Assembly: GCA_965646995.1 (NCBI GenBank)
Contig: CBFGBH010000001.1
Coordinates: 16,372-80,371 of the forward strand
Source: Candidatus Onthoplasma sp.
Lineage (GTDB): Bacteria > Bacillota > Clostridia > Christensenellales > UBA1242
Length of the DNA stretch: 64,000 nt
Direction of reading: 5' to 3'
The translations under genes and the position numbers were made by a program. This document shows positions 1,980 through 57,042 of this stretch, piece by piece. The notes under the pieces were generated by a model. The model did no database searches and had not been told where the DNA came from. It saw only the letters and a list, made by a program, of their open reading frames with translations. Position 1 is the first letter of the stretch. Each line of letters starts with the position of its first letter.

Positions 1980-4733
1980 TTATCTTCTAGGGCCTTCACC
2001 CATTATCCATTGAACATTCGGATAAGCGATGATATCAATGAACGACCTATCCATAGGTCCAGTGATGAAGAACGCACGACCTCGTGGTGCAGTGACGATA
2101 CCCTCTTGCTCTCTAGCATTGATACCACCTGCTGATTTATAAAGTTCGAGTAAGTCTGCCATATCGTTAGGGGCCAACTGCAGAATCAAGCTATACTGAC
2201 AAGCATTAATGATAGCAGCCGATCTACGCTGAATCTCTGGAGTACCTAAGAAGTCCTTAATATTCTGCGTAATAACTATCTGCATACCTTGATATTTACG
2301 AATACGCTTAGCCATCTCAGCCATGAAGTTAAGCGCAACTGGCGAATCCGGATCGATAAACATATGTGCCTCGTCGACTGCAATTACGACCTGACGTTTA
2401 ATATCTTTGCCTGTACGCTGATAGTACTGCTCATTAAATCTTTTATTATTAATAATTTCATTATTTAGATACTTGAATACCAACAACATCTGAGCATTCG
2501 CTAGTTTATTATTCTTACTAGCAAATAATGTCTGGAAGTTGAATGTAATCAGGTTCTCGTCCGTCAAAATTGAAGTAGGACCATTCCAAAGGTCAGAATT
2601 TCGTCCACCTGTAGCAAACTTCTGAATATAAGTCTCTAGTATCAATAGATTGTTACGATAGAACGCATCTTTCACGCTCTTCAATTTAGACTGTATGAGA
2701 GCGAATAAATCGTCAAATATAGGATAATCTTCTGCCTTAAGTTTACCAATATTAGTCTTCTCGTTTATTCCTTTCTTATTATACAATTCTACAACTAGTG
2801 TATTTAATGTCTCGAACGCGTCTGAGCTGATACCTTCGAGAATCGCTCTGAAGAATTGCTCCAAGAATTGTAAGTGAGTGAAGAAGGTCTTATTGCTACC
2901 CTTATTAACCATTTCATCAATGCTGACGTTATCTACATTATCTACATCGTTAGCTGCATCTAGGTCTTCTAGCGAAGCCATTATATGAAATGGATTTAAT
3001 ATACCTGATTTATTCGTACCGACATCAATCACTTTTCCGCCTAGATTCTTAGTCATGACATCATATTCTTGCTCCGGGTCTAGTATAAACATCTTAGTTC
3101 TGTCGGCTGCTAAATTCGTAAGAATAGTCTTAGTTGCATATGATTTACCCGAACCAGACTTACCGATGACCATCATATTTGAGTTAATACGACCTTTCCT
3201 AGAGTCTCGCACGAAGAAGTCAATGAACACAGGATATCCACTTGCACTAGACGAGCCAATACAGAAACCGGCGTTATCCTGCATAATAGAATCTACCATA
3301 GGGAATGACGCTGCAATAGTGGTAGACGGCATGCTACGATAGAATGGTTTAAGAGTATCAATACGGTTAACACTAGATGATACAAATGCGTCTACTTGAC
3401 GACCGAATAGTTCGCTGTATTTGAAACCATTTTGCTTTAATACATTACGAACTTCTTTACGCTTATCTTCTTCTACACGGAGATGAATAGATACATCGTA
3501 TAGCTGTTCGTTATTCGTCTTTAAGTCACGCAGTAAAGTATGCAATGAATCTATGTCAGCTTCTTTCTCGATTATCTCGGATGAACGGAAAGTTTTATCC
3601 AGTTTAGACTCTTTCTCCATAACGGCTTTGTCTATCGCTTTCTCGCCCTTTTCTTTGTCCACAGGCCAGATATTCATGATGACACGAGTACCTTCTTGAT
3701 TGAATATAGGATATGCCCAGCCATTTCCCACTTCGAGTGGATAATTAGAGATAACCATTTGCTTATAAGGTTTTTTATCTATCTCTACACGAGCGACCTT
3801 GAAGTCCACTTTGTCTGGCATTATCCAGTTCGTATACTGACTAGGAGCGAGTCCCTCTATCTCACGCTCTGAATACACTGCTTGATAGTTTGATTTCAGA
3901 AAACTGATTAACTCATCTTCCACTAGTATCTGCGAGCTGATAGTGTACTGACCAGTGGCTAGGTCATTCACTATACCGATAGCTGTCTCTTCTAAGTTCG
4001 TCCTATCTTCGCCATACAATACCATATAATAGTGGTCTTGTAATATTGGCTCTGCCTTAATAGCATTATTTAGTCTATCTACACGCTCACGGAATATGAT
4101 AGACCTAGACTCCATCTCGCCGTCATTGTACTGTCCCTGCTCGTAGAGTTCGTTTAAAAGTTCAAATTTTTTATCGTCATTCTTTAGGAATTTATCAAAT
4201 CTCATCGGCTTGACATTCTTGATAATACTAGCACGCTGATATTGTGATATACGCTTCAATGCTTTACTAAAAGTTAATATGACCGAGTCCTGTGCAGGCT
4301 CTTGCATTAGGTCTAGAGCCAGCGGATTCATCTCGATGACCATTCCAGCATAATTGCCGAAATTTATGAATTTACCCACTTCTATTCCTAAGAATGGAGT
4401 GATATTCTCGATTGATTTTGCCTTCCTTGGCTTAGTACCAGATGGTACTTTGATATATTTCTTACTAAACGCTGCGAATCGAATAATCAGTCCTAGCGAA
4501 CTATATAATCGTAACCCTTCATCAATCGGTATATATAATGATACCGCGATAGCAAGCCAGCCAATGAGAGCATACCAGCGATAGTCCACTCCACCGAATA
4601 AGAATAACCTATCAGACGCTGCGATAATTACCGCAAATATACCACAAAGAATGGCGAGTATAATATCGCCAAGTGTAATATTTTTAAGAAACTCGGTCTT
4701 GACTCTCGTCTTACCCGGAATATACCTAATCAT
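1980..4733 (-). CDS. virB4: type IV secretion ATPase, VirB4/TraE family, with VirB3-like two-TM N-terminus
   Basis: 917 aa. Two N-terminal TM helices, Walker A GKSGSGKS, Walker B VVIAVDEAH. Neighbours are VirB6-like and VirD4 genes. Confidence 0.85.
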   Translation of the reverse strand: MIRYIPGKTRVKTEFLKNITLGDIILAILCGIFAVIIAASDRLFLFGGVDYRWYALIGWLAIAVSLYIPIDEGLRLYSSLGLIIRFAAFSKKYIKVPSGTKPRKAKSIENITPFLGIEVGKFINFGNYAGMVIEMNPLALDLMQEPAQDSVILTFSKALKRISQYQRASIIKNVKPMRFDKFLKNDDKKFELLNELYEQGQYNDGEMESRSIIFRERVDRLNNAIKAEPILQDHYYMVLYGEDRTNLEETAIGIVNDLATGQYTISSQILVEDELISFLKSNYQAVYSEREIEGLAPSQYTNWIMPDKVDFKVARVEIDKKPYKQMVISNYPLEVGNGWAYPIFNQEGTRVIMNIWPVDKEKGEKAIDKAVMEKESKLDKTFRSSEIIEKEADIDSLHTLLRDLKTNNEQLYDVSIHLRVEEDKRKEVRNVLKQNGFKYSELFGRQVDAFVSSSVNRIDTLKPFYRSMPSTTIAASFPMVDSIMQDNAGFCIGSSSASGYPVFIDFFVRDSRKGRINSNMMVIGKSGSGKSYATKTILTNLAADRTKMFILDPEQEYDVMTKNLGGKVIDVGTNKSGILNPFHIMASLEDLDAANDVDNVDNVSIDEMVNKGSNKTFFTHLQFLEQFFRAILEGISSDAFETLNTLVVELYNKKGINEKTNIGKLKAEDYPIFDDLFALIQSKLKSVKDAFYRNNLLILETYIQKFATGGRNSDLWNGPTSILTDENLITFNFQTLFASKNNKLANAQMLLVFKYLNNEIINNKRFNEQYYQRTGKDIKRQVVIAVDEAHMFIDPDSPVALNFMAEMAKRIRKYQGMQIVITQNIKDFLGTPEIQRRSAAIINACQYSLILQLAPNDMADLLELYKSAGGINAREQEGIVTAPRGRAFFITGPMDRSFIDIIAYPNVQWIMGEGPRR

Positions 4734-44996: not shown

Positions 44997-45563
44997 ATGA
45001 AAGAAAAAACTGAAAAGAATAAAAAACCTAAAACTCAAAAATCATGGGTATGGCCAGTGAAGATACTATTACTAGCCATATTTCTTTCTCTATCCTTTAG
45101 TATCATCAGTGAACTCGCGCTCGAGAATGCGAGCATAATTGTATCTGTCATAGTGATATTGACATTCATAAGCGTAAGTATACTCTTCGATATGCTAGGA
45201 CTCGCTGTAGCATCTAGTAGTCTGGAGAATTTCACTGCTATGGCATCTAGAAAAGTCAAAGGTAGCAAACAAGCTATTGCTCTGAATAAGAATGCAGACA
45301 AAGTCTCATCAATATGCGCTGATGTGATAGGCGATGTATGTGGAATTCTGTCTGGTGCAGCCGGTGCTAGCATACTCACTAAAATTGCACTTGCATCAAA
45401 TGGGGATTTCATTCAAATTCTGATAGCTTCATCTATATCAGCCGTGATTGCTGGACTCACGATATTTGGTAAAGCAAGTCTAAAACGCTATGCTATTAAA
45501 CATTCTAATGAAATCACATTGAAGTTCGCCAAATTTATCAATTTTTTCACTAGAAAAGATTAG
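44997..45563 (+). CDS. oapA: four-TM membrane protein, OLE-associated protein A candidate
   Basis: 188 aa with four predicted TM helices and a DVIGD (DxxxD) motif in TM3. Immediately downstream of the large ncRNA. TATAAT box 5 nt before the ATG and no SD. Confidence 0.45.
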   Translation: MKEKTEKNKKPKTQKSWVWPVKILLLAIFLSLSFSIISELALENASIIVSVIVILTFISVSILFDMLGLAVASSSLENFTAMASRKVKGSKQAIALNKNADKVSSICADVIGDVCGILSGAAGASILTKIALASNGDFIQILIASSISAVIAGLTIFGKASLKRYAIKHSNEITLKFAKFINFFTRKD

Positions 45564-45838
45564 ATGATTTTGTCTAATTCTTTATACCACATTTCGAGTT
45601 CTTGTCCAATACGAACACCTAGACTCAAAGCATATCCGCCCTTGATTCTCTCCTTCTCTTCATAAAATTCACGAAGATGAAATAGGTAAGAGTTAAGGGA
45701 TTTTTTCTGCTCAACATTAAGCATATTATATAAATGCTTTCGCGATCTCTGTATATCTAAATAAAATTCACTCTCTTCCTCTTTGAATTTAGGGAATTTG
45801 TGTAAAAATAATTGAATTATAGTATTTGGTATTTCCAT
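45560..45838 (-). CDS. small helical hypothetical protein
   Basis: 92 aa from the AAGGAG-preceded ATG at 45838. Divergent from the double-HTH gene. Confidence 0.45.
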   Translation of the reverse strand: MEIPNTIIQLFLHKFPKFKEEESEFYLDIQRSRKHLYNMLNVEQKKSLNSYLFHLREFYEEKERIKGGYALSLGVRIGQELEMWYKELDKII

Positions 45839-45939
45839 TTTTAGTCTCCTTGTACTTATTATATTAATCACTTTTCGACCTGTCAAGCAAAATCTAAATA
45901 TTAATCGTTTTTCAGCTTGTTGATTTTTTAGGTTGAAAA

Positions 45940-46386
45940 ATGATGTATATTATTAATATGAAAATATTTATTGATAGATTAAAATATCTCATGTCAGAAA
46001 ACCGCTTTACTAATGAAACTCTATCCAATAAACTTGGAGTATCTATTGGTACGATTAAGAGTTGGAAAGTTTCTCAATCTGTACCTATATTAAATACCGC
46101 TATCAAATTAGCCAACTTATTTGAATGTTCACTTGATTATTTATTTGGTAAAATAGATATTGAAAAATATGATAATTATGTCAATCCTCCACCATTCCAT
46201 ATTCAATTAAGAAGATTGATAGAAGAAAAAAATATAAGTCAATACAATCTGATTACCAACAAAATATGTAGTCCCGCAAATCTAACACGCTGGCTAAAAT
46301 ACCAAACCTCTCCCAATATGTCAAACGTAATTAAACTAGCTGATTATTTTAATCTAAGTCTTGACGAATTTGTTGGTAGAGTTTAA
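45940..46386 (+). CDS. tandem double XRE-type HTH regulator
   Basis: Two HTH units (NETLSNKLGVSIGTIKSWK and ISQYNLITNKICSPANLTRWLK). Likely start is ATG 45958, 6 nt after TG-TATATT. Confidence 0.7.
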   Translation: MMYIINMKIFIDRLKYLMSENRFTNETLSNKLGVSIGTIKSWKVSQSVPILNTAIKLANLFECSLDYLFGKIDIEKYDNYVNPPPFHIQLRRLIEEKNISQYNLITNKICSPANLTRWLKYQTSPNMSNVIKLADYFNLSLDEFVGRV

Positions 46387-46388
46387 AA
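46315..46388 (+). repeat. direct repeat copy A (3' end of the double-HTH gene)
   Basis: 74 nt, 68/74 identical to 47202..47275. Confidence 0.85.
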
Positions 46389-46414
46389 AAAGTAACTTGT
46401 TAGTTACCTTTTTT
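46385..46414. terminator. bidirectional terminator between the HTH gene and toxN
   Basis: Hairpin GTAAC/GTTAC flanked by A7 and T6. Overlaps the toxN stop codon. Confidence 0.5.
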
Positions 46415-46885
46415 ATTAAACAATTTTGATTTTTGTTCTAATAATGTATAGTTACAACATCTCTGTCTAACTTCTTGTCTCAATGTACCTTTATTATAAG
46501 AATTATATAGATTCGTTGCTCTATTCAAGATTTTTATCTCGTTGTCTTTAAAAAATATTGCTTGTTTTATTAAGAGCTGTCTATATTTTAAATTTTTCTC
46601 GTCAAGTATATTAAAATTAATAATACTATCTTTGACTACAGGTATCATATTATTAAAATTAATTACACCAAGTTTACCAGCATCGATCTTCATCATATCT
46701 TCTGAATTCTTCATCGTCAAATGCTTTTGTTTCGGACTAGACAAAGGAGCATAATATTTATGATTTTTCACTTTAAATAATATACCTATGTATGGGCGAG
46801 ACTCTCCCTTATTAAAACAAACTTTATTATCAAATTGCCTAAGATAATTGGTATATTTATCAGTAACATATACTATTTTAATCAT
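46400..46885 (-). CDS. toxN: type III toxin-antitoxin toxin, ToxN/AbiQ family endoribonuclease
   Basis: 161 aa from the AGGAGAG-preceded ATG at 46885. Collinear by eye with ToxN/AbiQ: KIVYVTDKYTNYLRQFDNKV, RPYIGILFKVKNHKYYAPLSSPKQKH, LGVINFNNMIPV, YRQLLIKQAIFFKDNEIKI, CNYTLLEQK. The track start at 46930 (GTG) lies inside the terminator hairpin. Confidence 0.88.
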   Translation of the reverse strand: MIKIVYVTDKYTNYLRQFDNKVCFNKGESRPYIGILFKVKNHKYYAPLSSPKQKHLTMKNSEDMMKIDAGKLGVINFNNMIPVVKDSIINFNILDEKNLKYRQLLIKQAIFFKDNEIKILNRATNLYNSYNKGTLRQEVRQRCCNYTLLEQKSKLFNKKGN

Positions 46886-46903
46886 ATCTCTCCTAATTAA
46901 AAA

Positions 46904-46930
46904 GTGGAAAGGAGCGATGCCCCTTTCCAC
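46904..46930 (-). terminator. intra-operon terminator between the antitoxin repeats and toxN
   Basis: 9-bp stem GTGGAAAGG/CCTTTCCAC followed by TTTTT on the minus strand, directly before the toxN RBS. Confidence 0.6.
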
Positions 46931-46940
46931 TACTTTTTTA

Positions 46941-47050
46941 TCCTTACTTCTAGGCTAAGGTTCTCCTGCTTTTTTCGTCCTTACTTTTATGGGCTAAGGT
47001 TCTCCTGCTTTTTTCGTCCTTACTTTTATGGGCTAAGGTTCTCCTGCTTT
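46941..47050 (-). ncRNA. toxI: type III antitoxin RNA: about 2.9 tandem repeats of 39 nt (ToxI/antiQ-like)
   Basis: Plus-strand units TCCTTACTT(CTAG/TTATGG)GCTAAGGTTCTCCTGCTTTTTTCG at 46941..46977, 46978..47016 and 47017..47050 (truncated). Transcribed sense carries an A6 tract per unit. Same strand as and upstream of toxN. Confidence 0.8.
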
Positions 47051-47103
47051 GGGCTCGAAGCCCTACACGGAATAAAAGGAGGTTATCACTTTTTTCCGTT
47101 ATT

Positions 47104-47132
47104 ATTTTATAGCATTATTATATAAAAGTCAA
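47104..47132 (-). promoter_or_regulatory. promoter of the toxI-toxN operon
   Basis: Minus-strand TTGACT, 17 nt, TAAAAT. Two small leader hairpins (47051..47063 and 47066..47098) follow before the repeats. Confidence 0.45.
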
Positions 47133-47201
47133 TATATTTTTCACAAATTATTAATAACGCTACAAAACATATTATTCCCCAATAGTTCAAAACTTTACTA
47201 A

Positions 47202-47273
47202 AATATGTCAAATGTGATAAAACTAGCTGATTATTTTAATCTAAGTCTTGACGAATTTGTAGGTCGTGTTTAA
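47202..47273 (+). pseudogene. orphan 3' fragment of an HTH gene (direct repeat copy B)
   Basis: Encodes NMSNVIKLADYFNLSLDEFVGRV plus stop, identical in protein to the end of the 45940..46386 product. Preceded by an in-frame TAA. The 6 nucleotide differences are all synonymous. Confidence 0.75.
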
Positions 47274-47286
47274 AACAAAAAGCACT

Positions 47287-47967
47287 CTATAATGAGTGTT
47301 TTTTATCATTCTTTTCTTTGAATAATTCTATTACTTGGTCTAGGCTATCATATTTTCTATATGCCATTTCTTTCACTTCATCGCTAGGCTCTTTAAGGTC
47401 GGGTATCAATATAGGTCTCACTCCTGCATGTAAAGCGGAGCGAATTCCATTATCTGAATCTTCTAGTGCTATCGCCTCGTCCGGTTTCACTCCCAGCACT
47501 TCGCAAGCTATCTGATATATTTGTGGGTCTGGCTTAGGACGCTCAACTTTATCTCCTCCTATTATAAAATCAAAATAATCAGTAGATAGTTTCGCCTGAC
47601 TAAATCGCTCTTCTATCCTATTCATAGCAGAAGAAGATGCTACTGCCAGTTTCACATCCTGTGTTTTTAAAAATTCCAGCAGTTCCATGAGTCCCTTTTT
47701 AATGCCTAGACCAATAGTCTCGACCTGCTCCTTCATGAATATCTTATTTAACCTTCTAAATTCAGCAGGGTCGAAATCATCTCCCATTGCTTCTTTTAGC
47801 ATTATATCTATCTTATCTTGACGATTACCCATACATTTGATAATCAATTCTGGTGGGACATTATAGCCATATACCTCGTTAGTTTTTATCACGCCATCGA
47901 GCCATAATTTCTCGGTATCAAACATAAGTCCATCCATATCGAATATAACTGCTTTTATTTCGTTCAT
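47287..47967 (-). CDS. HAD-superfamily hydrolase (beta-phosphoglucomutase-like subfamily IA)
   Basis: 226 aa. DxD motif VIFDMDGLMFDTE and C-terminal EDSDNG motif. Confidence 0.75.
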   Translation of the reverse strand: MNEIKAVIFDMDGLMFDTEKLWLDGVIKTNEVYGYNVPPELIIKCMGNRQDKIDIMLKEAMGDDFDPAEFRRLNKIFMKEQVETIGLGIKKGLMELLEFLKTQDVKLAVASSSAMNRIEERFSQAKLSTDYFDFIIGGDKVERPKPDPQIYQIACEVLGVKPDEAIALEDSDNGIRSALHAGVRPILIPDLKEPSDEVKEMAYRKYDSLDQVIELFKEKNDKKHSL

Positions 47968-49177
47968 TTACTCTCCTTTACTAATCGTCCATACTCTATT
48001 CGATTTAAACCAATCGGTATCTTTTAATTTTATAGTATTGTTTGAACAATTAATACCTACTTGTTCACTTGCCTTATAAGTCACTATCACAATATTTCCA
48101 TTCATGGAAGTAAATAGGTCTTTCTCCCAATCTACACACAGTGTAGTCACATAGATTTTGTCTGTGTACTTTGATACTCGGTCTATGAATTCTTGTGTCG
48201 GGAATTGATTGACCTTAGTCTTGGTATACTCAGGACTGCCGGCACAGCAACACACGCATACTACTTTGGGTTTGATTACACTGAGTAGTTCATCTGTAGA
48301 CGATGTCTTACTACCATGATGACCTGCTTTATATAGGTCAATTTCTGGCAAAGCATTATTCTCGACTAACATTTGCTCTCCACTATCTTCCAAGTCGCCT
48401 GTGAATAGGTAATGTTTGTCCCCATATGTAAGTAGTATACATACCGAATAGTTATTCTCTGTACTCGCCTTATGAGTAGTATCAGTTAGCTCTCTATCAT
48501 ATTCTGAATAATAATTATATAAAATCTCGAACTTAAGTTCATTCGTCTCATCTAGTATAAATTCACGGCTCGCTCCATTCGTATTATTATAACAATCAAT
48601 AGCCGAGTAATGCACTGCTTCCCCGATCTATCTCTTCATTCAATTCTCTAAGGTAATTATTATACATAGTAGCAGTAGCTTTTTGGTTAGTAGCTGAGCC
48701 AAAATCTATTATAGTCTCGCATTCATATATATCAAATATACTTTTCACTTTGCTAGTCGTAGCAAAGCCTGCATAATGGTCTTGGTGTGCATGTGTAACT
48801 ATGACATATTCGAGCGTATTATCTGTCATATATTTATTGAGATAAGATGACACTGTCGCTATGCTATTTGACTTTGAGCCACAGTCGATTAGTATATCAA
48901 TATCTCCATATTTTATATAAGTACAATCGCCAGTATATTTATTGCCCAGTTCTAAGAAATGTATAGATAATTCGTCACTTGCACCTGTGAGCTGTACGCT
49001 CGAGATATCTTCCGTATCTGAATATGAATAGTAGATCTCTTCTCCTATGGTCAATATCTCGGTAGGTGGTAGGGTCGCATAGGTGTAACCAACTACACCT
49101 CCTGCAAAACCTATAATTAAACCTATTATGCAGATAATGAACGATACGAGCGGATTTGATTTTTTTCTTTTAGACAT
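47968..49177 (-). pseudogene. membrane-anchored MBL-fold (ComEC C-terminal-like) hydrolase, split by a frameshift
   Basis: N-terminal half (ORF 48596..49231, real start ATG 49177) has a TM anchor and HAHQDH. C-terminal half (47968..48615) has FTGDLE and AGHHGS. The halves overlap in different frames, and removing one G from the G4 run at 48621..48624 restores a single ORF. Confidence 0.65.
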
Positions 49178-49688
49178 TTTCTCCTCCTTGTGATTCATTA
49201 GGTAGCATTTCTTCACTCTCGCTCGGCTCAACGAATGTGATTAATCGTATCTTCTGTACCTTAAATATGCTACCATATTTGAGACAATTCACTTTATATA
49301 CGATATAGAATGTACCTATCTCGTCTGACGAAAACTCGCCATTCGCACCACGATTAAGGTTGGTATCAATCTCCACTTTCGCACTCATATCACGACCAAA
49401 TGAGACTACCGCCACTCCTTCGTTTAAATAGGATTCGCCAAGCGTCAAAGTTATCTCGTCACGACCGATTATCTCAAACTTATCATTTCGTGATAAATAC
49501 CAGCACAACCCTACACCTATCAATGCTCCTAAAAGTACCAAAACTAATAATGCTATCAATACATTTTTATTAGTGTGTTTTAATGTCTTTTCTACTTGCT
49601 TGCCGGTCTTTTTAGTTGATTTACTATCGAATCTGATATTTAGACCTGCTCTAGCACTCGTCTTGCTCGCTGATTTTCTAGTCGCCAT
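49170..49688 (-). CDS. membrane-anchored protein with an Ig-like (DUF5011-like) ectodomain
   Basis: 172 aa. Basic N-terminus, one TM helix, then a pattern GESYLNEGVAVVSFGRD...IGTFYIVYKV reminiscent of DUF5011. Confidence 0.4.
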   Translation of the reverse strand: MATRKSASKTSARAGLNIRFDSKSTKKTGKQVEKTLKHTNKNVLIALLVLVLLGALIGVGLCWYLSRNDKFEIIGRDEITLTLGESYLNEGVAVVSFGRDMSAKVEIDTNLNRGANGEFSSDEIGTFYIVYKVNCLKYGSIFKVQKIRLITFVEPSESEEMLPNESQGGENV

Positions 49689-56793: not shown

Positions 56794-57042
56794 ATTAATA
56801 AAAATCTCCTTGAATTTAAGGTTAGCATAAAGTAGATTATATAGCAAATATTTAATATGAAAATATCTCTTCTACTAATGTTTAAAGCTATCAAAAATAC
56901 AAATATAATAATTAATTAAAAAAAGCGGAGATTACTACCTTAAATGTATCCCCACTTCTATCATAAAAAGCATTAATTATTTAATTTCATTATTATATAT
57001 AATTTTTTATATATTTTAAAAAAATATTAAAATTTATTTATT

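Follow-up and report, generated by a model that had tools for sequence, protein, structure and literature searches.

Positions 46400-47132 of a 64-kb stretch of DNA from Candidatus Onthoplasma sp. (contig CBFGBH010000001.1), read on the minus strand, are a complete type III toxin–antitoxin (TA) locus of the known ToxIN family. The stretch as a whole (64,000 nucleotides, nt) is referred to as the window, and all coordinates are those of the window. In the order of transcription, the locus comprises a sigma-70-like promoter, a structured leader, three units of the antitoxin RNA toxI, a terminator, a Shine–Dalgarno (SD) sequence and the toxin gene toxN. We consider it very likely that this is a complete, probably functional chromosomal module that was acquired recently as an 810-bp cassette. 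An earlier note on this DNA had proposed the succession of promoter, repeat array, terminator and toxin on one strand, and that order fits the locus criteria of Blower et al. 2012 (PMC3401426), namely a homologue of toxN, a tandem array upstream of it, a palindromic terminator between the two and a promoter, the last being preferred but not strictly required. The module is not a chance arrangement, because 80 of 84 loci of related proteins have a homologous array in the same position. These loci include a main clade and a subclade to which the window belongs. The features of the locus, in the order of transcription and followed by one open reading frame (ORF) on the opposite strand, are as follows.

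47104-47132, minus strand: promoter-like site with -35 TTGACT (47132-47127), a 17-nt spacer and -10 TAAAAT (47109-47104); 10 of 12 consensus positions
47069-47097, minus strand: 5' leader stem-loop with the subclade-specific CCUCC(UUUU) motif (47082-47078)
47051-47063, minus strand: small hairpin GGGCUUCGAGCCC directly adjoining the first repeat unit
47015-47050, minus strand: toxI unit 1, 36 nt, with a 5' A-tract of only AAA: AAAGCAGGAGAACCUUAGCCCAUAAAAGUAAGGACG
46976-47014, minus strand: toxI unit 2, 39 nt: AAAAAAGC-AGG-AGAA-CCUUA-G-CCC-AUAAAAG-UAAGG-ACG
46940-46975, minus strand: toxI unit 3, 36 nt: ...AGG...CCUUA-G-CCU-AGAAG-UAAGG-AU, with a full P1 helix (AGG/CCU)
46934-46939, minus strand: A6 tract that follows unit 3, where the 3' end of that unit is predicted to be processed
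46898-46931, minus strand: intrinsic terminator (attenuator) with a 13-bp stem and a 3-nt loop (46931-46903), followed by a U-run
46890-46894, minus strand: SD sequence AGGAG, 4 nt before the toxN ATG
46400-46885, minus strand: toxN, predicted ToxN/AbiQ-family endoribonuclease toxin of 161 amino acids (aa), from PF13958, PADLOC AbiQ, PDB matches and AlphaFold2 (AF2)/Foldseek
46904-47125, plus strand: 73-aa ORF with a periodic product

The toxin

The toxN ORF starts with ATG; a longer version with a GTG start (46930) was rejected, as that start would fall inside the terminator and homologue alignments give it no backing. The profile search of the 161-aa protein matched PF13958 (ToxN_toxin) with an E value of 4.3e-44, residues 3-154 (152 of 161 aa) aligning with profile positions 2-157 of 159, and the PADLOC AbiQ model with an E value of 1.2e-40, which upholds the earlier claim that this ORF is collinear with ToxN/AbiQ. 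No NCBIfam model matched the toxin. Its sequence alignments are collinear with all four solved ToxN/AbiQ proteins: ToxN_Bt (4ATO, E 1.3e-22), ToxN_Pa (2XD0, 1.7e-20), Escherichia coli ToxN (7D8O, 4e-18) and AbiQ (4GLK, 5.5e-11). The AF2 model, built on 29 relatives, has a predicted local distance difference test (pLDDT) score of 92.2 and a predicted template-modelling (pTM) score of 0.86. As modelled, the toxin has the ToxN fold, with a twisted antiparallel β core and surrounding helices that include a long kinked helix, and Foldseek superposes it on 2XD0, 7D8O, 4ATO and 4GLK with template-modelling (TM) scores of 0.83, 0.82, 0.84 and 0.81, respectively. The corresponding values are 0.59 for CptN (4RMO, 14% identity) and about 0.3 for MazF. 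We place the toxin in ToxIN rather than in the CptIN or TenpIN families because of its TM scores of 0.81-0.84 to four ToxN/AbiQ structures against 0.59 to CptN. Membership of CptIN was rejected on the CptN score, which is far below the ToxN matches, and on the lack of a CptN match in Pfam and PADLOC; membership of TenpIN was rejected since Pfam and PADLOC give ToxN/AbiQ only and no TenpN structure occurs among the Foldseek matches with E ≤ 0.001.

In E. coli ToxN (ToxN_Ec), K33, T52, S53 and K55 are catalytic, and Y110 and Q117 hold the RNA (PMC8860590). By alignment, the equivalent residues of the window toxin are R30, S49, S50 and K52, which form the predicted active site, and Y101 and Q108. 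Among the 29 relatives there is no variation at R30 or Q108 and almost none at K52 or Y101. Both departures from the E. coli catalytic set, lysine to arginine and threonine to serine, occur in active family members: arginine is found at the K33 position in E. coli clusters 4/5 (PMC8860590) and serine at the T52-equivalent position of AbiQ (S51; PMC5086642).

Relatives of the locus

A scan for toxin relatives with one genome per species gave at least 583 genome matches, almost all in metagenome-assembled genomes (MAGs) of uncultured gut Bacillota. The nearest relative found anywhere is 71% identical, and the ToxN and HAD-family proteins of the window had no exact match in the assembly index. 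The 84 loci compared here (designated by L numbers) are relatives from the scan together with four contigs that carry the two closest proteins. In 80 of them, Tandem Repeats Finder (TRF) reports an array within 400 nt upstream of toxN, typically with about 3.2 copies and a period of 34-42 nt, two loci having a period of 59 nt. A TRF period of 39 nt, as in the window, also occurs in L002, L004, L006, L008 and L010. Scans of JGI metagenomes and IMG/VR with the unit pattern of the window type gave no matches.

The two loci with 59-nt units, L022 (74-284) and L027, have about 24 nt inserted in the loop between the 3' arms of the two helices P1 and P2 described below, and both helices are kept; these units offer a natural test of loop expansion. 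Three loci show two toxI-like arrays near one toxN: L063 (2001-2106 and 2768-2889), L060 (1113-1181 and 1359-1464) and L075 (2824-2934 and 3566-3674). The two arrays of L075 lie on opposite sides of toxN, one upstream and the other downstream, which recalls the inverted arrangement of Lactobacillus jensenii (Blower et al. 2012).

The toxI array and its predicted fold

TRF finds one array at 46933..47050 with a period of 39 nt, 3.1 copies, 93% matches and a score of 201, which makes it the strongest tandem repeat of the 64-kb window (the runner-up scores 110). The three head-to-tail units described in the earlier note are present, with sizes of 36, 39 and 36 nt in place of the 37, 39 and 34 nt given there. 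Its suggestion that a 39-nt unit might represent a new RNA variant does not hold: the published toxIN range is 31-62 nt, relatives share 39-nt periods and the unit is homologous to the family consensus.

The repeats are also overlapped by the 73-aa plus-strand ORF, and they could in principle be its coding sequence, or be unrelated to toxN. That ORF exists, and its product is periodic and mirrors the DNA repeat, as expected of the translation artefact that it had been taken for. The repeat is conserved as an RNA structure with compensatory changes on the toxN strand, the periods of the relatives (34, 35, 37, 38 nt etc.) are mostly not multiples of 3 and 80 of the 84 toxN loci carry an array; a coding or unrelated origin is thus vanishingly improbable, and we treat the repeats as antitoxin RNA.

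AAAAAA follows each unit, and the final A6 runs directly into the terminator. No element of the unit is better conserved family-wide than the A-tract (columns 2-7 of alignment A5), and this conservation fits the cleavage inside A-runs reported for ToxN_Bt and AbiQ (PMC5086642, PMC8860590). In unit 2, P2 is formed by CCUUA/UAAGG and P1 by GG/CC with A.C at the third position. Folding of a single unit, one of the checks that the earlier note had proposed, was partly favourable: the P2 hairpin is the minimum free-energy (MFE) structure of unit 2 and the pseudoknot is backed by covariation, but the folding energy is no better than that of shuffled sequences.

Covariation was examined in two alignments. 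The subclade alignment contains 22 distinct units from 10 loci and was made with plain MAFFT. RNAalifold finds P2 in it unaided, with compensatory changes in all four pairs, and compensatory double changes are found for five of five P2 pairs. The P2 variants are CCUUA/UAAGG, UCUUA/UAAGA, UUUUA/UAAAA, CCCUU/AAGGG, CUCUA/UAGAG, GCUC/GAGC and CCCAA/UUGGG. For P1 and P2 together, 90.3% of the alignment cells are paired compared with 78.7% after shuffling (none of 500 shuffles reaches the observed value), and controls in which the pairing was slid give 33-65%. The main-clade alignment contains 59 distinct units aligned by their 5' and 3' ends with padding of the loop only, a procedure that assumes loop indels and makes no use of pairing. 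Here P1 is 97.7% paired, with GC/AU/GU and UG/CG/UA exchanges, and overall none of 500 shuffles reaches the observed values. The covariation in these alignments supports a ToxI-type H-pseudoknot for each unit, with two interleaved helices and single-stranded A-rich tails. Two other alignments were discarded: plain MAFFT of the unit consensuses (A2), which misplaced the loop indels and was not used for P2, and one derived from the covariance model R1 (A4), which scattered the 3' arm of P1 into insert columns and was unsuitable for pair counting.

The consensus unit is AAAAAAGC-GGU-GAA-UCCA-GCC-AUUAAAU-UGGA-ACUU, to which the window unit is homologous, and R1, built from 36-nt main-clade units, tiled the arrays of most relatives. 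A search of 45500-48000 against Rfam at a permissive threshold gave chance-level matches only, none of them on the array. Elsewhere in the window, 56919-56957 on the plus strand (AAAAAAGCGGAGATTACTACCTTAAATGTATCCCCACTT) matches the main-clade toxI model with 14.5 bits (E of about 0.03). It is intergenic, with no array or toxN near it, and is probably a chance match and possibly an orphan relic of a toxI unit.

Promoter, leader and terminator

The TTGACT-17-TAAAAT site noted earlier at 47104..47132 is present as described. A site of the form TTGAC(A/T)-17-TATNNT lies at the same relative position in L002, L005, L006 and L008. Between the promoter and the array, the leader (47097-47051) folds at -13.1 kcal/mol with z = -2.3. 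Its CCUCC(UUUU) motif, which resembles an anti-Shine–Dalgarno sequence and lies about 35-60 nt upstream of the first toxI unit, occurs in 10 of 11 subclade loci (including L002, L005-L009, L013 and L014) compared with a background of 5%, and is absent from the main clade. We found no description of such a leader, with CCUCC motif and hairpin, in the ToxIN literature cited here. MFE folds pair CCUCC with the toxN SD sequence in 5-6 of 9 subclade loci, and in the window CCUCC forms a local hairpin instead. This long-range pairing was discounted as evidence, since CCUCC pairs with any GGAG in such models. The subclade leader motif, CCUCCUUUU, could nevertheless pair with the toxN SD sequence or with the 5' arm of the terminator, which, if true, would tie toxN expression to processing of the array.

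An equivalent of the small hairpin at 47051-47063 (GCUACUUAGUAGC-like in the main clade) adjoins the first A-tract in most of the 84 loci, in both clades. The hairpin may fix where the first unit begins, or protect that 5' end.

The hairpin and U-run that had been noted between the array and the toxin ribosome-binding site are confirmed, with a stem of 13 rather than 9 bp. This terminator folds at -21.3 kcal/mol (z = -5.9; none of 200 shuffles folds as well), and a hairpin with a U-run is found at the same position in all subclade relatives.

Integration of the cassette

The contig L085 (Logan SRR35209588) provides the corresponding site without the TA locus. It encodes an identical XRE protein, with the HAD gene 14 nt on and no toxIN between them. 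Its identity to the window is 99.3% as far as 46391 and 99.0% from 47202 on. The inserted segment and the direct repeats at its ends are as follows.

46392-47201, strand not applicable: inserted segment of 810 bp, absent from L085 in the contig comparison
46315-46391, plus strand: direct-repeat copy 1 (attL-like), the live XRE 3' end; resident on the left, foreign on the right
47202-47278, plus strand: direct-repeat copy 2 (attR-like), orphan; foreign on the left, resident on the right

The insert consists of the toxIN module only, extending 69 nt beyond the promoter on one side and 8 nt beyond the toxN stop codon on the other, and has a GC content of 29% compared with 34-37% in the flanks. 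Copy 2 duplicates the last 23 codons and the stop codon of the XRE gene and is preceded by an in-frame stop. The two 77-nt repeats are 91% identical and 887 nt apart, and both encode NMSNVIKLADYFNLSLDEFVGRV*, all seven of their seven differences being synonymous. L085 has a single 78-nt segment (4376-4453) that matches both copies and corresponds to the left part of copy 1 joined to the right part of copy 2: the differences from L085 are confined to positions 59, 63, 65 and 75 in copy 1 and to positions 12, 15 and 18 in copy 2. As read from these alignments, the pattern is the attL/attR signature of one reciprocal crossover in a 40-nt identical core. The foreign halves of the repeats are AAATGTGATAAAACTAGC... 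and ...GAATTTGTTGGTAGAGTTTAAAAAAAGTAAC, and because all seven differences are synonymous they would derive from another functional allele of the gene end. A longer homology between the two repeat regions was considered and rejected, as direct alignment shows a sharp boundary at 47202.

The cassette would thus have entered at the 3' end of the resident XRE-family repressor gene, by crossover with a cassette-borne copy of the same gene end. The incoming molecule would have carried a different, formerly functional allele of that end next to toxIN, and the crossover would have left two hybrid 77-nt repeats and an unchanged XRE protein. The insert contains no recombinase, and no relative of the L014 integrase (see below) was found within the 64 kb. 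No orphan XRE fragments were found upstream of toxI in L002 or L005.

The comparison with L085 alone does not distinguish insertion in the window lineage from loss in L085, as deletion and insertion give the same resident allele and the polarity is unreadable; under either history the repeats testify to the integration of foreign DNA. If the strain with toxIN were ancestral, L085 would have lost the cassette by recombination between the 77-nt repeats. Segments flanked by direct repeats are prone to loss, and recombination in the 40-nt core would regenerate exactly the single copy of L085. Yet such a history still needs an earlier foreign integration to account for the repeats, whose foreign halves differ at seven positions, all synonymous. 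The GC content of the insert is also lower, and the toxin should select against strains that lose a TA cassette. We regard loss in L085 as unlikely and retain recent acquisition by the window lineage.

The same comparison bears on the XRE gene (45940..46386, plus strand), which encodes a two-HTH (helix–turn–helix) XRE-family protein of 148 aa and is convergent to toxN. In the window, L001, L002-L004 and L005, toxN is followed at a distance of 20-114 nt by a convergent XRE-type gene, which could be taken for a third component, a transcriptional regulator of toxIN. The identical 148-aa protein is present in L085 without toxIN, which marks the gene as a resident and as the insertion target, and a single tblastn query detected no such gene beside toxN in the other 78 loci. 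As the empty site has XRE without toxIN, the three-component idea, which we rate as highly improbable, was dropped; the association of XRE genes with toxIN is better explained by a preference of insertion site.

Repeats also flank toxIN in three relatives. In L039 a cassette of about 0.93-0.95 kb follows a Sir2-family gene, with repeats at 2608-2642 and 3536-3572, and a degenerate orphan copy of the last ~12 codons of the Sir2 gene lies beyond toxN. In L006 a 46-nt, hairpin-containing repeat (98% identical; 2578-2623 and 3532-3577) flanks a cassette of about 0.93-0.95 kb. In L014 (1-1856) a tRNA-Asp gene holds an element of about 1.8 kb whose sole components are a 256-aa tyrosine integrase (PF00589) and toxIN; on either side of the element is a 49-nt repeat of the tRNA 3' end, the two copies being identical. 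These three cases are anecdotal, being given without a background rate of such repeats and without empty sites.

Beyond the single event in the window, toxIN in the gut-Bacillota clade may travel as a cassette of about 0.8-0.9 kb that carries a captured 3' end of a host gene as a homology arm. Such a cassette could be excised as a circle via its flanking repeats and be reinserted at the same gene end elsewhere, leaving the gene undamaged. The joint proposal of a recombinase-free toxIN cassette with a portable homology arm and of a pairing role for the leader motif is a tentative one, and we hold it to be doubtful.

Genomic neighbourhood

The neighbouring genes encode a glutamyl-tRNA synthetase (GluRS), a HAD hydrolase, a GNAT protein and an MBL-fold protein, and nothing there signals a phage or a defence island. 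The host is an uncultured member of the Bacillota, probably of the Clostridia; its closest GluRS match is 85% identical, and the closest named ones, at 68%, are from MAGs labelled 'Clostridia bacterium'. The XRE protein is RstR/CI-like (NCBIfam NF041951, below the cut-off; phrog_8). Its gene is divergently paired with a small ORF of unassigned function on the minus strand (45560-45886), at the 5' end of which there is a perfect TTGACA-17-TATAAT (45886-45858), in a layout that resembles a repressor/target switch. The MBL-fold gene (47968-49231, minus strand) is split into two overlapping ORFs of 215 and 211 aa by an extra T at 48619 and is a single 402-aa gene in L085; the gene may have suffered a genuine frameshift and be a pseudogene, or the extra T may be a homopolymer sequencing error. 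Another single nucleotide is inserted at 49638.

Functional state and proposed role

Several observations weigh against a complete and functional module. The nearest characterized proteins are only 27-30% identical to the toxin (Foldseek alignments), and its closest annotated plasmid and phage homologues from cultured organisms, which the NCBI annotation pipeline (PGAP) names 'type III toxin-antitoxin system ToxN/AbiQ family toxin', are at most 45% identical. The promoter is a consensus match only, in AT-rich DNA, and promoter-type matches number 21 in the region compared with 13.7 expected. Unit 1 lacks a full 5' A-tract, and its release from the leader may be in doubt. The third pair of P1 is an A.C mismatch in units 1 and 2 (A-U in unit 3), and the two G:C pairs of P1 are constant throughout the subclade and are uninformative either way. 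The single-unit fold energy is no better than that of shuffles (z of -0.1 to -0.3), as is usual for ToxI-type knots, so that the argument for the structure is the covariation. The R1 model did not detect the units of the window itself at E ≤ 1, and since this main-clade model missed them we regard the window RNA as a divergent sub-lineage. Finally, no anti-phage activity of ToxIN_Bt has been demonstrated in the native host (PMC5086642), which makes a role in defence uncertain.

The P1 mismatches and the incomplete 5' A-tract of unit 1 are also what would be expected of an inactive relic, recognizable but no longer functional. The toxin ORF is nevertheless of full length, with all catalytic and fold-determining residues and a confident predicted fold; the repeats are 93% identical; promoter, terminator and SD sequence are intact; and the flanks still match the empty site at 99% identity, as expected of a recent acquisition. 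Moreover, an active toxin without antitoxin would kill and an inactive toxin would decay. A relic is therefore very unlikely, and we describe the module below as a probably functional one.

By analogy with the characterized systems, one promoter (47132-47104) would transcribe the leader, the three toxI units, the terminator and toxN. The strong terminator would stop most transcripts and so keep the antitoxin RNA in excess over toxN mRNA (PMC3401426). ToxN would cut the precursor in the A-tracts between units to give RNAs of about 36-39 nt, each of which would fold as an H-type pseudoknot (P2 CCUUA/UAAGG; P1 GG/CC plus a variable third pair). The A-rich single-stranded tails would fill the active sites of adjacent ToxN molecules and close an inactive protein–RNA ring (PMC5086642, PMC8860590). 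If transcription of the locus stops, for instance through phage-induced host shutoff, the unstable RNA would be depleted and ToxN freed to cleave RNA, arresting growth and perhaps aborting the infection; activation on a stop of transcription is reported in PMC10853763, which cites Guegler and Laub 2021. For the window locus we infer processing, antitoxicity and phage defence from these analogues, and the 'abortive-infection type' label of the earlier note is an inference of the same kind.

The locus might instead be a genuine ToxIN whose role is selfish maintenance (addiction or post-segregational stabilization) rather than phage defence. Type III systems stabilize plasmids, and the missing native-host abortive-infection (Abi) phenotype of ToxIN_Bt (PMC5086642) points the same way. 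The cassette acts as a small mobile insert without other cargo, in an ordinary chromosomal neighbourhood where, as stated, there is no defence-island signal and PADLOC gives generic MBL-fold matches only. ToxIN_Pa, E. coli toxIN and AbiQ, however, protect against phages, even in heterologous hosts (PMC5086642, PMC10853763), and maintenance and defence are not mutually exclusive and cannot be separated from sequence alone. A purely selfish role is thus a serious possibility, though one that falls short of being probable.

Significance

As a ToxIN locus the module adds little: descriptions of the family, its architecture, its RNA pseudoknot and its span of repeat lengths date from 2009-2013, and toxins of this kind already receive a name from annotation pipelines. 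Its interest lies in a very large and almost wholly uncultured gut-Bacillota ToxIN clade with a coherent, covarying antitoxin RNA for which no Rfam family was matched; the unit alignment could seed an RNA family and allow automatic annotation of these antitoxins. Together, L085 and the window are a natural record of one site without and with a type III TA system, as before and after its acquisition, with junctions resolved to the base pair, and would provide a concrete example of a minimal TA cassette that spreads between strains without a recombinase of its own. The conserved leader motif is a testable lead on control of the toxin-to-antitoxin ratio.

Comparison with known systems

The toxIN family as catalogued in PMC3401426 (Table 2) averages 38.1 nt per unit (range 31-62), 2.8 copies (1.9-5.6) and 168 aa per toxin (70-288). 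Compared with the 67 toxIN loci of that survey the window lies on the means, with 39 nt, 3.1 copies and 161 aa. Many of the 67 loci are in gut Firmicutes and Fusobacteria and most are chromosomal, as is that of the window. The window toxin belongs to a large clade known almost wholly from uncultured gut MAGs (at least 583 genome matches), which is later than the catalogue. The CptIN and TenpIN families have repeats of 40-48 and 39-57 nt, respectively.

The best solved-structure match by sequence is ToxIN_Bt (Bacillus thuringiensis pAW63, 4ATO; TM score 0.84). The two toxins are of the Firmicute type and share the SRPY(I/V)G and NNMIPV motifs, and the loci have the same order of promoter, array, terminator and toxin with about three copies of the repeat (2.9 in Bt). 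The A-rich tract between the units of the window fits the cleavage by ToxN_Bt within a run of five A (PMC5086642, PMC8860590). The differences are an identity of 27% (Foldseek), a unit of 34 nt compared with 36-39 nt in the window, and a plasmid-borne location whereas the window locus is chromosomal and its subclade has a leader of its own, with the CCUCC motif and hairpin.

ToxIN_Pa (Pectobacterium atrosepticum pECA1039; 2XD0/2XDB/2XDD) and E. coli ToxIN (7D8O) have the same fold (TM scores of 0.83 and 0.82), the same architecture and a pseudoknot antitoxin, with the catalytic set K33/T52/S53/K55 corresponding to R30/S49/S50/K52. They are encoded on plasmids of Gram-negative bacteria and have 5.5 repeats of 36 nt that are cut at AA/AU or GAA/AU, whereas the window has a long A-tract. 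W57, K87 and F88 of ToxN_Ec are replaced by K54, N78 and N79 in the window toxin, and RNA recognition therefore probably differs from that of ToxN_Ec.

AbiQ/antiQ (Lactococcus lactis pSRQ900, 4GLK), a proven Abi system, belongs to the same Pfam/PADLOC family (TM score 0.81) and likewise has serine at the T52-equivalent position (S51). Its antitoxin array has 2.8 repeats of 35 nt that are cleaved in A-runs. It is plasmid-borne and, with an E value of 5.5e-11, the weakest of the four sequence matches.

With respect to its mode of insertion, the cassette resembles integrative elements at the 3' ends of genes or tRNAs, such as that of L014, which likewise are flanked by direct repeats of the 3' end of their target, preserve the gene product and leave hybrid attL and attR sites. 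Unlike those elements, the window insert has no integrase, and its 77-nt repeat with a 40-nt core is homologous coding sequence. A homologous coding repeat of this length is explained by homologous recombination no less well than by site-specific recombination.

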